Virus record (IMG/VR): IMGVR_UViG_2541047874_000005
Direction: 5' to 3' (one strand)
Origin: a virus
Lineage: Duplodnaviria > Heunggongvirae > Uroviricota > Caudoviricetes
DNA length: 37,745 bases
A model generated the notes under the pieces. That model was not told where the DNA came from, made no database searches, and saw only the letters and a program-made list of their open reading frames with translations. The translations under genes were made by a program, and so were the position numbers. The stretch's first letter is position 1. The number at the start of each line of letters is the position of its first letter. Positions 20,555-28,777 of the stretch are shown in pieces.

Positions 20555-21054
20555 GATTCGATAATTTTCAGAAACGGGTTAGTGGCTTTCTTCTGCCCCG
20601 CCAGGCCAATCAGACGCTGGCGGCTGCTGGGGTCGAGTCCGAGCATTGCCCCCGTACTGCTCATCTCGGACTCCTGTTCTTTTTTGGCGGTCAGCTCCGG
20701 ATTTTTGACCATGCCGCCCATTGCACCGGTGATGGTGTTGCCCTGTCTGGCAATATTTTTCACGGCACGTCGCCAGAACTCATAGGCTACGCACCACCGC
20801 TCAAGCACTGCGAGGTCAGTCACGCACAGCAGGCCCTGACCGCAGAGTTCTTTGGTTGTCAGTTGCCACATGATCGTGGCGAGAGGGAGCTCTTCTTCAG
20901 CGAACCACTCCGGTGGCTCAACACCTTTGATGGGCGTAAAAACGGGTTCATCTTTGTTCAGGGCTCGCTTGCCGGGGTTTCCGGCCAGCGCCTTGCGCGC
21001 CGTTGGCTTGGGGCGACGCCCGGAACGCCCCGCCGTTCCAGCCATATGCGGCAC
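20551..21054 (-). CDS. Terminase small subunit, P27 family
   Basis: 167 aa; [22 protein letters not shown] is the P27-family signature. Confidence 0.8.
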
Positions 21055-21082
21055 TCCTGGTTAAATTTCATTTTTCGCGGGT

Positions 21083-21150
21083 ATAAAAAAACGATGGGGC
21101 GGGCAGTCCGGAAGACGTCAGGTCACAGGGATTTGACCCGCCCCTCCCCT
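21083..21150. other. Candidate cos site / GC-rich dyad element between HNH and terS
   Basis: GGGGCGGG (21096..21103) and CCCGCCCC (21138..21145) inverted repeat flanked by an A-run; HNH-terS-terL arrangement is typical of cos-packaging HK97-like phages. Confidence 0.3.
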
Positions 21151-21170
21151 CAGACAGTTGAGAATTATTA

Positions 21171-21521
21171 TCACTTTAACCGTTCACGGGCCGTCTTCGC
21201 CTTATGGCACGGCCAGCACAGACTCTGCAGATTACTGTCAGCATCAGTGCCGCCATGCGCTTTAGGGATGATGTGGTCAACAGTTTTCGCCTCACGCACC
21301 ACACCAGCACGCAGACATAACTGACACAGGCCTTTGTCACGCTTCAGGACACGCGCGCGGATACTGTCCCACTTCGAACCGTAGCCGCGCTGATGACGGG
21401 ATTGTCCAGGTTTGTATTGCTTCCAGCCTTCGCTTTTGTGGCTTTCGCAATAGCCTGACGGGTCAGTGGTGGTATGGCGGCAGCCGCGAACACGGCAGGC
21501 TTTTGGGGTTCGTGGGGGCAT
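21171..21521 (-). CDS. HNH endonuclease (packaging-associated)
   Basis: 116 aa; CxxC ... DHIIP ... H ... CWPCH (HNH/zinc motif); immediately upstream of terminase genes. Confidence 0.85.
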   Translation of the reverse strand: MPPRTPKACRVRGCRHTTTDPSGYCESHKSEGWKQYKPGQSRHQRGYGSKWDSIRARVLKRDKGLCQLCLRAGVVREAKTVDHIIPKAHGGTDADSNLQSLCWPCHKAKTARERLK

Positions 21522-21571
21522 TTAAATTTCTCCTTCAATCATTACTACTGGTCTACCCATCGTAATGGCAA

Positions 21572-21600
21572 CAAAAAACCGCCCGTGGAAAGTGGGCGGT
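21572..21600 (-). terminator. Rho-independent terminator after the GrlR-like moron
   Basis: Minus strand CCGCCCAC-loop-GGGCGG hairpin followed by TTTTTT. Confidence 0.55.
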
Positions 21601-21616
21601 TTAGGAGAGAATCGAT

Positions 21617-21937
21617 TTAAATCAAATTGCCGATAAATTTCGCCTGTACAGACAGAGTCGCACCAGGAACACCAGCAATTCCACCTTCAAGGTAATAACC
21701 ATCCCCAATATCTCTCACAGAGAGATCCATCACATAATCGTTAAGGCCTGCAATAACGTTTTGTGCTGAAGGGTTATGGCGGGATACATGAAGTTTCAAT
21801 ACCCCATCTTGTACACGCCCCTGATAGGTAAACCCAAAATCACCACCATTAACCGCATTATCCTTCACAACGACCGTGCCATTGCCAACATCATTATGAC
21901 CGCTTCTGAACACAACAAAATAAATGCCGTCTTTCAT
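21617..21937 (-). CDS. Moron: GrlR-like small beta-barrel protein (tentative family)
   Basis: 106 aa; MKDGIYFVVFRS...GNG...GGD...YQG...L.V.RHN matches my recollection of GrlR-family proteins; lower GC than neighbours; own terminator; AT-rich upstream region. Confidence 0.5.
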   Translation of the reverse strand: MKDGIYFVVFRSGHNDVGNGTVVVKDNAVNGGDFGFTYQGRVQDGVLKLHVSRHNPSAQNVIAGLNDYVMDLSVRDIGDGYYLEGGIAGVPGATLSVQAKFIGNLI

Positions 21938-22029
21938 GTGTATAGTCCTTCAAAAAAATCACCCAAATCAGGTGCTTTGTATCTATTGGGTCATCACATA
22001 TCAAATCAAGGAACAAAATAAAGTGAACA

Positions 22030-22299
22030 TCATTTTTTTTGCATGATGTGACCACGCTCAACGTCAATCCTTCTGATGTCAGCTTTATCGGTATTACACT
22101 GCGCCAATGCAGACAACAAGGCGGCATTCAGATCTAAGCTCGAGCCCCACGTAAAATGATCAGGTAAATCAGGCTGAGGGGTTTCAGCCGTCAGGCTGGC
22201 TGGTAACGGAACTACCGGAACCTGGACGTAAACTGTTCGCGTACTTCCGCAACCGGTCAGCAGCGGCAGCAGGCACAGGACGTGAAGCACAATCATCAT
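22030..22299 (-). CDS. Rz1: o-spanin (Rz1-like outer membrane lipoprotein)
   Basis: Lipobox LLTGC, proline-rich mature region; +1-frame overlap with the 3' part of Rz and extension beyond it. Confidence 0.65.
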   Translation of the reverse strand: MMIVLHVLCLLPLLTGCGSTRTVYVQVPVVPLPASLTAETPQPDLPDHFTWGSSLDLNAALLSALAQCNTDKADIRRIDVERGHIMQKK

Positions 22300-22576
22300 C
22301 CGCAACAGCCACTTTGATATCTTCCTGGGTTCTCTGTGACTCCAGTGCGATCTGCTGTTTTGCATGTTGATTCGCCTCCTGAATGATGTTCGTTATTGCC
22401 ATAGTACGCAGAACATTCGCGGTGATAGTCTCAGTAGAATCAGCTCGCTGTTCCGCAGCATCAGCACGCTTCTGCTCCTCCAGAAACTTTCCATGATAGT
22501 GATTCGCTGACCAGACAAGACCACCAGCGACACAAGCAATAAACGTTAAAATGAGCGCCCAATAACTCATCTTCAT
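22184..22576 (-). CDS. Rz: i-spanin (Rz-like)
   Basis: 130 aa; N-terminal TM helix then charged helical periplasmic domain; directly downstream of the endolysin. Confidence 0.7.
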   Translation of the reverse strand: MKMSYWALILTFIACVAGGLVWSANHYHGKFLEEQKRADAAEQRADSTETITANVLRTMAITNIIQEANQHAKQQIALESQRTQEDIKVAVADDDCASRPVPAAAADRLRKYANSLRPGSGSSVTSQPDG

Positions 22577-23187
22577 ACCAGCAGCGCCGCCCGCGCCTTG
22601 TTGTATCGGACCTTACGATCCTCAATACCGTTCAAACCGCCGTTAATGATGCGCGTAACACGGTTAATATCGGCACCGTAGATCATGCAACCTTTAGAGG
22701 TGTAGAACCATGCAGCTGAGCGCGCAGCCTGTAGTTCCTGTTCCAGTTGTTCAGGTGAAGTCACCAGATCTAACTTCAGCGCCGCGCCACAGATGCGATA
22801 ATTATGGAGGCCAGTGATTTGAATTAATCCTCTACCACGATATTTCCAGCCATCACCTGGTGCTTTGTTACCCAGTCGGTTGCTATACACCAGATTGGCA
22901 ATAGCATCCTGACGAGCTGCATGTCCGGATGTTCTGCCAAGGGCATCAGCCTGCTGCTGTGTGATCCTCTTTCCGAACGTCGCCACCAGCGCAGATGGTG
23001 TGTAGTTAAAATTTTCAACTACGGCGCTAAACCCCATCGACTCATGGCCTACCTGAGCGATAAACATTGCCTGATCCGCTGGTGCTGTAATGCCGAATTC
23101 CTTCATCGCCGCATCAATGTGCGGAAACCAGCGCGCAGCCAGCCCGGCGCTAATACCAGCCGCCTTTTGAAATAATTGTTGGTTCAT
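22573..23187 (-). CDS. Endolysin, glycoside hydrolase family 19 (chitinase-like)
   Basis: 204 aa; GHESMGF and YRGRGLIQITGLHNY match GH19 catalytic motifs. Confidence 0.85.
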   Translation of the reverse strand: MNQQLFQKAAGISAGLAARWFPHIDAAMKEFGITAPADQAMFIAQVGHESMGFSAVVENFNYTPSALVATFGKRITQQQADALGRTSGHAARQDAIANLVYSNRLGNKAPGDGWKYRGRGLIQITGLHNYRICGAALKLDLVTSPEQLEQELQAARSAAWFYTSKGCMIYGADINRVTRIINGGLNGIEDRKVRYNKARAALLV

Positions 23188-23841: not shown

Positions 23842-23920
23842 TTAGCCCCCTCTTAATTGCTGTTGGTCCTCTCAGATATGAGGGGAAGGGATCTTAATGA
23901 CAGTCTGTTTATTATTTCAG

Positions 23921-24177
23921 TCAAATACTACCCTGTTGATGATTTCTCAGAAGCGAACTTGACTCCCAAGGGAAACTCAACTTTCCGTTAAAACCACCAG
24001 CAGACATTCGTTCAATTTCCACAGAAATATCACTGAGCCGTTCTTCAAGCTCTGCTTTTTCTTTTACCAGACGGTTATAGCGGCTTAGATGAAGCTTTTG
24101 CTGCTCCAGCCAGTCTTCAAGCTGTTCAACAGTCATACCAGGGTTAAAAAAATATGGCTGCTGCTTTTCGCCCTGCA
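23921..24177 (-). CDS. Hypothetical protein, first ORF after tR'
   Basis: About 85 aa from the ATG at 24177 just after the terminator hairpin; the longer ORF in the track (to 24247) would span the terminator. Confidence 0.4.
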
Positions 24178-24189
24178 TTATTGACCTCC

Positions 24190-24220
24190 AGAAAAGCAAA
24201 AACCCCGCCGAAGCGAGGTT
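24190..24220 (-). terminator. tR'-like intrinsic terminator of the late leader transcript
   Basis: Minus strand CCTCGC-TTCG-GCGGGG hairpin (one G.U pair) followed by TTTTTGCTTTT; about 60-70 nt downstream of the putative PR'. Confidence 0.5.
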
Positions 24221-24328
24221 TGTTATGATTTCGTTAACGGCAGACATACAAAGCCCATCGTTAAGAGAATCCTAACCAAATTTTTTGAAAAATGCAAGAA
24301 TTACGTCGCCATCTTCGGCGAAAATCAT
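24221..24328 (-). promoter_or_regulatory. Putative late promoter PR' with Q-utilisation region
   Basis: Minus strand TTGCAT (24297..24292), 17 nt spacer, TAGGAT (24274..24269), immediately after the Q stop. Confidence 0.4.
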
Positions 24329-25081
24329 TTATCTTGTCACTTTTCTCAATTGTGTCTCTGCATATGCTTCTTCCTGCCAGCACTTTGTAACCAGTTTATC
24401 AATGACATCTGCATATCCTTTGTACCACTGATAATCCGTCAGATCCGGTACCAGCTTCTGGACATGATGCCGCGCCAGTGTGGTTGGTAAACGGCTAAAC
24501 CGGTTTCCATTGCAACGCCCACAAATCTTATAAACAGGCGCACCATGAAGCCGGGTTCTTTTTTCATCCAGTACAATACCTTTCCCCTTACACCCTCTGC
24601 ACGCTGTGCTGACCTCTCCCTTACCATGACAATGCTGACATAGTTCCTTCACCCACTCTTCCTTGATAACAGATTCCCCGCTTCTGGAGTGTTTCACCAC
24701 TTCGCGCAATACATTATGAAATCCAGTACCAGCACAATGCTCACAGCGAGCCTTACTTGCCGCAGACCTGGAATAATCAGCAAAGGCAAAATTCACAAGG
24801 TAAGGGATGATCTGTAACCGGGTTTCTTCACTCAATTTGTTCAATGTCGGGTTATCCAGTGCCATCGCGTAATTGAGCAGACCTTCAATCGCAAACTGAG
24901 GATCCTGAACACCAACTTTTGCCAGGAATAAGGCAAACCCAAGCGGTGCTTTCGACTGCACCATCCCCTGCGCAGCCATTACATCCGTAATTGTTAAACC
25001 ACCAGAGCCTGTCGCCGGTGCGTCATCGCTCAGTTTTGGAGATTTCGGGGAGTAATATTTCGGTAAGGCTTCAAGGTTCAT
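24329..25081 (-). CDS. Q: Late-gene antitermination protein Q
   Basis: About 250 aa from the ATG at 25081; multiple CxxC/HCH zinc-finger-like motifs; directly upstream of the late promoter/terminator and lysis genes. Confidence 0.75.
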   Translation of the reverse strand: MNLEALPKYYSPKSPKLSDDAPATGSGGLTITDVMAAQGMVQSKAPLGFALFLAKVGVQDPQFAIEGLLNYAMALDNPTLNKLSEETRLQIIPYLVNFAFADYSRSAASKARCEHCAGTGFHNVLREVVKHSRSGESVIKEEWVKELCQHCHGKGEVSTACRGCKGKGIVLDEKRTRLHGAPVYKICGRCNGNRFSRLPTTLARHHVQKLVPDLTDYQWYKGYADVIDKLVTKCWQEEAYAETQLRKVTR

Positions 25082-27633: not shown

Positions 27634-28316
27634 GCCGCCATCTCCCTGACCAGTTTTTCCGCCTGCTGGCGAACCTGCGCCAGAAACGCCTCACCACATG
27701 CCTCAAGTTCATCACGCCCGATGTAGCTGATTGCCGGTCCCTTCCAGGTCTTGTCGAAAACAGCAATAGCACCAGCGAAGAAAGCGCCTGTCGGCACCTG
27801 CTTCTCGTCCTTCGGTATAAACCAGGCAGGCAGTTCAAAACCAATACGCCCGCGAATAAAAGCAATATGATCTGCATCTTCCGGCCACCACACTTCGCTG
27901 GTGGCCGCTTTGATCAGGAAAACATAGCGCCCGCCCTTATCACGCATGACACTGGCATGTTTCATGATGTAACGCATGCCGGTGATGTATTGCCCCTCAT
28001 GCTGACTGGCGCGGCTGTATGGGGGATTACCAAAGGCAGCACCTTTAAGCTCCGCAAGACGTTCTGACCAGTCATGCGCCAGCGCGTTATCTTCCGCCGT
28101 GTAATACGCGGCACATTTGGCGTTATCACCGTCAGTAAACAGATCCAGAACAAACGGGCCAAACAGGGTGTTAATTCCCCAGAAAATGTTGTCCGGCGTG
28201 CGCCACTGATCGCCCACTTCCTTCAGTTCATGGGCTGGTTTGTTCCGCAGTTCCACCAGCGCCTGGCAATATTTATTACTCATTAAGCCCCCACGTAATT
28301 CCCTGACAGATACCAC
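27630..28316 (-). CDS. Phage-type DNA N6-adenine methyltransferase (orphan)
   Basis: 228 aa; motif IV FGNPPYS; no adjacent restriction endonuclease; likely start at internal M (MSNKYCQ) given overlap with the upstream gene. Confidence 0.8.
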   Translation of the reverse strand: MVSVRELRGGLMSNKYCQALVELRNKPAHELKEVGDQWRTPDNIFWGINTLFGPFVLDLFTDGDNAKCAAYYTAEDNALAHDWSERLAELKGAAFGNPPYSRASQHEGQYITGMRYIMKHASVMRDKGGRYVFLIKAATSEVWWPEDADHIAFIRGRIGFELPAWFIPKDEKQVPTGAFFAGAIAVFDKTWKGPAISYIGRDELEACGEAFLAQVRQQAEKLVREMAA

Positions 28317-28777
28317 TCTTCACCCGATGCAGCGCGCTTGCTGCTTTTCCGTAAGCACCGCTCACGACGCGCCAGAAAATTGTTTCGTTCTGGCTGGGAG
28401 TGGCTTTCACGGAATGCCGCCATCCACACGGTTGCAGCACGACGGTATAAGCCCCTGGACTCCAGTTCTTCAGCCTGGCGGGTCAGGCACAAAATCACCC
28501 GTGGATCGTTAGTGCCGACATAGAAATTGCGCACAGGTCTGGTTTCTCGAACTGGTTGTGGTTCCGGTTCCTGCGCTCTCTCAGTCAGGCGCGGGAAATG
28601 TCTGCGTGTATCTCCTTCACAACGGTGAGCCACACGCCCACTCTGACGTAACTTGCTTGCTGACTGCAGAACGCGCTGCCGTGAGTAACCTGCAAAAGCA
28701 TCCGCAATGTCTCCGGAAGTACACCCCGGATGGGCTTCAATGAATTTCTGAACTTCATTCAAAAGACTCATGATCAC
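28283..28777 (-). CDS. Protein with C-terminal PerC-like domain (putative transcriptional activator)
   Basis: 164 aa; C-terminal EELESRGLYRRAATVWMAAF...RRERCLRK matches my recollection of the PerC-family GLWRRAA.RW...RRE.CL motif. Confidence 0.45.
   Translation of the reverse strand: MIMSLLNEVQKFIEAHPGCTSGDIADAFAGYSRQRVLQSASKLRQSGRVAHRCEGDTRRHFPRLTERAQEPEPQPVRETRPVRNFYVGTNDPRVILCLTRQAEELESRGLYRRAATVWMAAFRESHSQPERNNFLARRERCLRKSSKRAASGEEWYLSGNYVGA

Follow-up and report, generated by a model that had tools for sequence, protein, structure and literature searches.

GrlR has so far been studied only as a brake on the LEE (locus of enterocyte effacement) type III secretion system (T3SS), which it exerts by sequestering GrlA. 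Binding of GrlA and repression of LEE1 require a surface EDED motif of GrlR (Glu46-Asp49), and the dimer interface of this protein is formed by the residues I7, I23, I25, V39, I107, and E108 (PMC1868957). In addition, GrlR represses LEE promoters without GrlA, even in the LEE-negative background of Escherichia coli K-12, via an unidentified conserved element, and uncharacterised GrlR "orthologs" of 30-42% identity occur in other genera (PMC9979310); the latter probably include the phage-borne family described here. The gene under consideration is located on the minus strand (positions 21617-21937) of a 37,745-nucleotide stretch of viral DNA (Caudoviricetes; IMG/VR record IMGVR_UViG_2541047874_000005), the whole of which is referred to as the window. 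Its identity as a moron (accessory phage cargo) with a product of the GrlR fold is almost certain. The best explanation, with a probability of roughly 45%, is that of a self-contained GrlR-like moron cassette, the product of which would sequester a partner other than GrlA.

Membership of the GrlR family, which the original prediction had proposed from the sequence pattern, was borne out by sequence and structure comparisons. A phmmer search against the GrlR entries of the PDB (2ovs/3e3c and 4kt5) aligned residues 1-103 of the phage protein (E 1.8e-9), BLASTP against Sakai GrlR returned 33% identity (E 1e-14), and the sole Pfam match was to PF16518 (GrlR; E 4.3e-5), with a score of 24.1 bits that lies below the gathering score of 26.8. 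Precomputed PF16518 matches were found in many close homologues, and the reverse phmmer search with GrlR as query retrieved 229 of the 237 family proteins collected. Furthermore, the protein is a full-length member of PHROG 2483 (E 9e-52), the PHROG category of which is "unknown function". An AlphaFold2 model based on 42 homologues (pLDDT 92.8) displayed eight strands, the fifth and sixth of which are joined by a long loop, the fold being an eight-stranded up-and-down antiparallel beta-barrel with a plug loop; a search of the viral structures in BFVD gave no match at E <= 0.001. Neither a signal peptide nor a membrane segment was seen when the sequence was read by eye, and the protein is presumably cytoplasmic. 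It is a paralogue-level relative within the broad GrlR (PF16518) family and not a GrlR orthologue, its place being in a large branch of stand-alone members that are mostly encoded by phages. The family assignment itself is not new, as the identical RefSeq protein WP_000651448.1 is already named 'GrlR family regulatory protein' by the NCBI Prokaryotic Genome Annotation Pipeline (PGAP), as is WP_000651450.1. A search of the accessible literature library returned no paper or functional study on phage-borne GrlR-like proteins; its single match for 'GrlR homolog' concerned the LEE of Edwardsiella and was set aside as irrelevant.

The open reading frame (ORF) at 21617-21937 is a real gene under purifying selection and not a chance ORF, because pairwise dN/dS values were 0.03-0.11 and because its length is fixed at 106 amino acids. 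The former values were obtained against relatives of 82-94% amino acid identity (79-85% nucleotide identity), for which synonymous sites are near saturation; the latter length was found exactly in nearly all of 90 homologue clusters, from Escherichia, Enterobacter, Cronobacter, Citrobacter, Klebsiella, Serratia, Yersinia, Pantoea, Pectobacterium, Salmonella, and Acinetobacter. When 1.84 billion representative sequences were searched with a profile, the family grew to 457 clusters (50% identity) at E <= 1e-3, nearly all of them single-domain proteins of 105-125 amino acids. Two longer proteins were encountered as well, namely one in which a STAS-like DUF4325 domain (PF14213) is naturally fused to a C-terminal GrlR domain (P0190; 211 amino acids) and a protein with another N-terminal extension that carries no annotation (P0159; 226 amino acids). 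Possibly, the barrel has a part in signalling or partner switching, as such fusions might indicate.

The gene stands alone, as had been predicted, and a single minus-strand transcription unit fills positions 21572-22029 exactly. The features of the locus are the following:

21617-21937, minus strand: coding sequence of the 106-amino-acid GrlR-fold protein (MKDGIYFVVF...FIGNLI), 321 nt, 43.3% GC, 35.5% GC at third codon positions (GC3)
21938-22029, minus strand: AT-rich upstream intergenic region or leader, 92 nt, 33.7% GC
21946-21950, minus strand: ribosome-binding site AAGGA, inside the leader
21976-22004, minus strand: candidate weak sigma-70 promoter, with -35 element TTGATA (21999-22004), a 17-nt spacer, and -10 element TACAAA (21976-21981)
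21572-21602, minus strand: Rho-independent terminator with a 9-bp stem (AAACCGCCC/GGGCGGTTT), a 9-nt loop, and a T-run, beginning 14 nt past the stop codon
21522-22063, minus strand: cargo block of 542 nt compared with SfV-type phages, delimited by blastn breakpoints, alignment, and annotated junctions
22184-22576, minus strand: Rz spanin gene, after the PGAP annotation of a 100%-identical stretch of E. coli MIN14
22030-22365, minus strand: embedded Rz1/LysC spanin gene, the end of the lysis cassette, after the PGAP annotation of MIN14
21171-21521, minus strand: HNH endonuclease gene, with which the packaging module begins, after the PGAP annotation and the ORF list

The cargo block consists of the GrlR-like gene with its terminator and upstream region, plus an alternative 3' end of Rz1. 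Its base composition is deviant, with 43.3% GC in the coding sequence and 33.7% in the leader versus 51-59% in the flanks (GC3 46-64%), i.e. 50.6-50.9% in the upstream Rz/Rz1 genes and 54-59% (GC3 58-64%) in the downstream HNH and terminase genes.

The terminator is a strong one. Its predicted folding free energy amounts to -14.8 kcal/mol (z -3.3 versus dinucleotide shuffles), and only one out of 200 shuffles was equally stable. In 47 of 56 distinct family loci, the stop codon is followed by an intrinsic terminator, in most cases at a distance of 14-18 nt, the stem sequences varying while the structure is kept. The terminator of the window gene was not picked up by a consensus scan for promoters and terminators that covered positions 21000-22700, probably because its 9-nt loop exceeds the loop limit of that scan (8 nt). 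The sole terminator-like hit of the scan (21960-21974, minus strand), just upstream of the start codon, was rejected as a functional terminator or attenuator, since it is no more stable than shuffles, the leader (21938-22029) having no significant RNA structure (z 0.26), and since its T-run is broken in the allele of phage SKA5. Likewise, an Rfam scan of 21400-22200 returned for the terminator hairpin only a sub-threshold match to the 3' end of the unrelated small RNA NsiR4, which was dismissed. As to initiation, the -10 element TACAAA of the candidate promoter ends 38 nt before the ATG codon, the place at which relatives carry TATAAT. In 16 of the 56 distinct loci, some of them from Klebsiella and Serratia, a perfect TATAAT was found that ends 33-38 nt ahead of the ATG codon, and at least five of the six -10 positions matched in 24 of them; an E. 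coli variant (L087) carries TATAAA at the position of the candidate element. TTGATA-17-TACAAA may serve as a weak sigma-70 promoter of the GrlR-like gene. That the terminator travels with the gene would best be explained by transcription without the Q antiterminator, i.e. in the lysogen.

The GrlR-like gene is accessory cargo and not a core gene, because the slot is empty or otherwise filled in related phages and because few of the E. coli genomes that contain the flanks contain the gene. Homology in blastn with the phages SfV, 720R4, and 689R6 ends at position 21521, the start codon of the HNH gene, and restarts within the 3' end of Rz1, at position 22064. The 542 nt of the window correspond to 63 nt in SfV and 720R4. 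In vB_EcoM-689R6, the slot holds an unrelated ORF of 168 amino acids (L004 1980-2486, minus strand) and in the Salmonella phage 118970_sal3 an unrelated ORF of 184 amino acids (L005 512-1066, minus strand), neither of which matched a Pfam or PADLOC model. The Rz1-HNH slot is a hotspot for cargo in general, and several of its occupants are uncharacterised. Among 5426 complete E. coli genomes, the flanks were present in 1320 and the gene in 68, 14 of which carried the window allele and 54 the allele of SKA5 and of the enterotoxigenic E. coli (ETEC) strain H10407. Leader, flanks, and the first ~40 codons of the two alleles are ~95% identical, versus ~54% for the protein. The divergent block, which blastn cannot align, spans window positions 21586-21818 with respect to SKA5 (L006) and H10407 (L109), with a breakpoint inside the gene. 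This pattern fits better with a swap of alleles through recombination inside the gene, in its conserved 5' third; diversifying selection on the divergent C-terminal two-thirds was rejected, dN/dS being far below 1. Taken together, the AT-rich upstream region, the lower GC content than that of the neighbours, the own terminator, and the position at the lysis-packaging junction, all advanced in the original prediction, were found as proposed, and the same holds for its essentials, i.e. similarity to GrlR profiles and a gene that is not part of the phage core.

The position of the family with respect to late genes recurs widely. A lysis gene was found at most 1.5 kb upstream on the same strand in 71 of 80 IMG/VR loci and HNH or terminase genes at most 2.6 kb downstream in 52 of 80. 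This location was independent of the endolysin (GH19 or T4-lysozyme-like), the spanin type, and the terminase (HK97/P27 or lambda Nu1/GpA), and the family genes at phage cargo slots were always co-oriented with the late genes. It may be argued that the gene belongs to the late transcription unit and that the product is a late or lysis accessory protein with a role during lytic growth in lysis timing, envelope disruption, or packaging, which would account for its place directly behind the spanin genes, as the gene lies on the same strand 91-99 nt past Rz1/LysC in many loci, as the E. coli version has no convincing promoter, and as the lipid binding reported for GrlR could in principle relate to membranes. 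Such a role is nevertheless very unlikely. SfV and 720R4 lyse without the gene and other relatives carry unrelated ORFs instead; the terminator directly after the gene and the TATAAT promoters of many relatives point to autonomous transcription; the protein, read by eye, lacks a signal peptide and a membrane segment; and the family also occurs before the holin gene, in tail modules, in apparent P4-like islands, and at non-phage chromosomal sites. Indeed, the family gene of phage Pm34 and of a Providencia prophage is located between the antiterminator Q gene and the holin gene, and that of Acinetobacter phage qsb1 inside the tail module. Close homologues (88-90% identity) with the usual terminator retained were retrieved from three further loci (L018 2921-3238, L019 6001-6321, and L044 6001-6321), which were read by eye, without a profile check, as P4-like integrative islands on the basis of AlpA-like and primase-like neighbours. 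If this reading holds, the cassette also enters hotspots of satellites and islands. Distant members adjoin chromosomal ORFs read by eye as chaperone-usher fimbrial genes, or TetR and VgrG genes (precomputed Pfam hits). On the chromosome of Acinetobacter baumannii, a 107-amino-acid member (49% identity; L007-L009 6001-6324) has non-phage surroundings, being located directly upstream of a VgrG/Tli4-like type VI secretion island and convergent with a TetR-family gene. The cassette of gene and terminator is mobile between the late-operon cargo slots of unrelated phages, its architecture being kept.

Late-operon cargo slots and P4-like islands are known hotspots for defence genes. The occurrence of the family in variable cargo slots of this kind and in the three loci read as P4-like (L018, L019, and L044), as well as the filling of the same slot by other uncharacterised ORFs in sister phages, could indicate a prophage protection factor, expressed in the lysogen and blocking superinfecting phages, for instance by sequestering an incoming regulator; the gene would then be a moron for defence or exclusion and not one that modifies host physiology or virulence. 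Against this explanation, the GrlR-like protein matched no defence family in PADLOC-DB at E values up to 10, distant members reside in ordinary chromosomal contexts, such as those with fimbrial-like ORFs and TetR/VgrG genes, and the strong purifying selection leaves no sign of arms-race diversification. A function in protection is for these reasons judged to be quite unlikely, although less so than one in lysis.

The preferred reading, the GrlR-like moron cassette, can be described as follows. A self-contained cargo block (21522-22063) made up of an AT-rich leader, the 106-amino-acid gene, and a terminator separates the spanin genes from the HNH/terminase genes and has the orientation of the late operon. 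In the lysogen, the gene would be transcribed from its own weak promoter up to its own terminator; during lytic growth, read-through by Q-modified late transcription would be added. The protein would form a GrlR-like homodimer that binds another macromolecule stoichiometrically and thereby sequesters it, the likeliest target being a DNA-binding regulator, other than GrlA, of the host or of a competing phage. The gene may have a role in lysogenic conversion or regulation, as had been predicted. The mechanism as such, a dimeric regulator that sequesters its target independently of GrlA, is put forward tentatively, at clearly less than even odds.

Several observations weigh against the sequestering cassette and have to be set beside it. 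Firstly, the loop that binds GrlA in GrlR is altered, EDED aligning with Q43-D44-G45-V46 in a loop that is one residue shorter and non-acidic, and the phage protein is less acidic as a whole (pI 5.8 versus 4.8). Secondly, tblastn with Sakai GrlA against the window and ~110 related loci (~12 kb each) gave nothing below E 1, and no consistently co-occurring gene emerged among the loci examined. Thirdly, the consensus scan retrieved no sigma-70 promoter in 21000-22700, the AT-rich upstream region included, and the best candidate (TTGATA-17-TACAAA) has a position weight matrix score of 7.8, which corresponds to the 90th percentile of the window background and is on its own not significant. Fourthly, conserved residues make up six of the ten interface positions versus about one third of all positions, an enrichment that is only suggestive. 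Lastly, the conserved polar pocket (NGGD, Y38, and H54-N55) could equally fit a ligand site.

Another possibility is that the protein is a functional equivalent of GrlR, binding GrlA or its homologue CaiF and repressing LEE type III secretion in lysogens of enteropathogenic and enterohaemorrhagic E. coli. GrlR proper binds the helix-turn-helix of GrlA, forming a 2:1 complex. Fold and family are the same, the sister allele occurs in some O103:H2 and O121 carriers, serotypes that are usually LEE-positive, and the same prophage contains a gene of the PerC family (PF06069), a family to which LEE activators belong. However, the EDED motif is absent, and the loop at its place is variable and non-acidic over 42 relatives; throughout the 237 family proteins, an acidic run at this loop was limited to the true GrlR cluster and one other. 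The score against the NCBIfam GrlR equivalog model NF010652 was 38.5 bits versus a cut-off of 205. The protein is shorter than GrlR (106 versus 123 amino acids), of which it lacks 2 N-terminal and 15 C-terminal residues. Similarly, no grlA gene is adjacent; instead of a bicistronic grlRA operon within the LEE, the neighbours are the prophage Rz1 and HNH genes, and the PGAP annotation of the MIN14 prophage contains no CaiF/GrlA-family gene. In addition, most hosts of the family are Klebsiella, Enterobacter, Serratia, Cronobacter, and Acinetobacter, which are not known to carry the LEE. Since both the defining motif and the partner were looked for and are absent, a GrlA-directed LEE repressor is given the lowest weight of all explanations and is regarded as highly improbable.

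With regard to dimerisation, the GrlR interface residues align with I5, T21, V23, T37, I102, and G103, all six of which are invariant or nearly so in the 42-sequence alignment, two of these positions being occupied by Thr in place of Ile/Val. As the dimerisation face of GrlR corresponds to the best-conserved part of the family, the alignment suggests that a GrlR-like homodimer may be conserved. The most conserved polar motifs (NGGD, Y38, and H54-N55) recur in distant relatives as well. Together with the cavity and the lipid binding of GrlR, these motifs (NGGD/Y/H-N) would suit a ligand-binding barrel that acts as a sensor or sponge for a small hydrophobic or nucleotide-like molecule, such as a lipid or an immune second messenger of the host, and the main role of which would not be to bind a transcription factor. 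Yet, the structural likeness is one of generic barrel topology, with identities of 7-13%, the function of GrlR is not known to depend on any ligand, a PADLOC hit or other functional link was not obtained, and an own promoter and terminator fit a factor expressed in the lysogen better than a lytic counter-defence gene. This explanation is considered unlikely, albeit the least so among the four alternatives to the sequestering cassette.

A more far-reaching and equally unlikely interpretation turns the relationship with GrlR around. According to this interpretation, the stand-alone 106-amino-acid barrels would represent the ancestral, mainly phage-borne form of GrlR, carried in a mobile cassette of promoter, gene, and terminator and directed against a target conserved across the Gammaproteobacteria, and the GrlR of the LEE would have arisen from them by domestication, with the EDED loop and the GrlA partner as later gains. 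The target may be the K-12 factor behind the GrlA-independent repression by GrlR or, alternatively, a small-molecule signal in the barrel. If true, study of the phage protein would identify the missing target and reveal widespread prophage-encoded factors that reprogram the host.

Concerning the wider context of the locus, the 1.5 kb around the GrlR-like gene matches a prophage of E. coli O7:H4 MIN14 with 100% identity, and the window shares 98.7% identity with that prophage across 25 kb, in four pieces, indicating that it derives from a close relative of the SfV-like, Mu-tailed prophage of MIN14. The PGAP gene order in MIN14 is antiterminator, holins, GH19 endolysin, Rz/Rz1 (lysC), "GrlR family regulatory protein" (WP_000651448.1), HNH endonuclease, P27-type small terminase, large terminase, and portal, the HNH and the two terminase genes following the GrlR-like gene in the same order in the window. 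A second low-GC patch (41-42%) was noticed between the Q antiterminator and holin genes (23850-24450). It holds a hypothetical ORF (23921-24247, minus strand) that gave no Pfam hit. The slot between Q and the holin gene is the site of stx in Stx phages, and this ORF may be another moron, in the same slot as the GrlR-like gene of Pm34 and the Providencia prophage. The early region of the prophage encodes the PerC-family protein (28283-28777, minus strand; PF06069, 36.1 bits versus a gathering score of 22.6; yfdN according to PGAP), so that homologues of a LEE-activator family (PerC/Pch) and of a LEE-repressor family (GrlR) occur together in one prophage, the host of which is probably LEE-negative. 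In Klebsiella and Serratia lambdoid prophages, a conserved ORF of 212-214 amino acids follows the cassette and precedes the lambda-type terminase (L010 6729-7367, plus strand; L013 6376-7020, plus strand). No Pfam or PADLOC hit was obtained for these ORFs and no candidate partner emerged from them; an obligatory partner is unlikely to be encoded there, because E. coli has no equivalent.

For this window, the result is a modest one, namely an accessory gene without an assigned function that had been recognised correctly and was annotated already. New with respect to the databases is the existence of a stand-alone phage branch that has neither the GrlA-binding motif nor the partner gene and that is far more widespread than the GrlR of the LEE, together with the movement of a gene-plus-terminator cassette between late-operon hotspots. 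Among the temperate phages of Acinetobacter and of many Enterobacterales, the GrlR fold is common, and the phage proteins represent natural 'GrlA-free' versions in which the GrlA-independent activity of GrlR could be isolated. For prophage annotation, 'GrlR family regulatory protein' should not be taken to mean 'T3SS repressor'.

Compared with known systems, the locus resembles the classical lambdoid morons, such as bor and lom of lambda, the morons of HK97 and HK022, and stx between Q and S, the concept having reportedly been defined by Hendrix, Juhala, and colleagues. As in these cases, an extra gene of deviant base composition is situated between conserved modules and missing in sister phages, with a terminator of its own and, in many relatives, a promoter as well, and the hotspots (post-lysis, Q-holin, and tail region) are shared. 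The product, however, is neither a toxin nor a protein of the surface or envelope but a presumably cytoplasmic, regulator-like barrel, and the gene has the orientation of the late operon, unlike bor, which is opposed to it. Small lipocalin-like barrels that partner transcription regulators, such as those of the VtrC/ToxS type, are periplasmic or membrane-anchored and encoded beside the partner gene, whereas the phage GrlR-like protein is presumably cytoplasmic and has no adjacent partner gene. Lastly, GrlR itself is homologous over the whole domain, has the same barrel of eight strands, including the long 'plug' loop that connects strand 5 to strand 6, shares the N-terminal MKDGIY, GGD, and YQG motifs, and is likewise small, mildly acidic, and stand-alone. 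It differs in that the phage gene has its own terminator within a phage late operon, outside the LEE and without a grlA operon, and in that the phage family is carried by prophages of LEE-negative genera. The action proposed for the phage protein would resemble the GrlA-independent repression exerted by GrlR in E. coli K-12.

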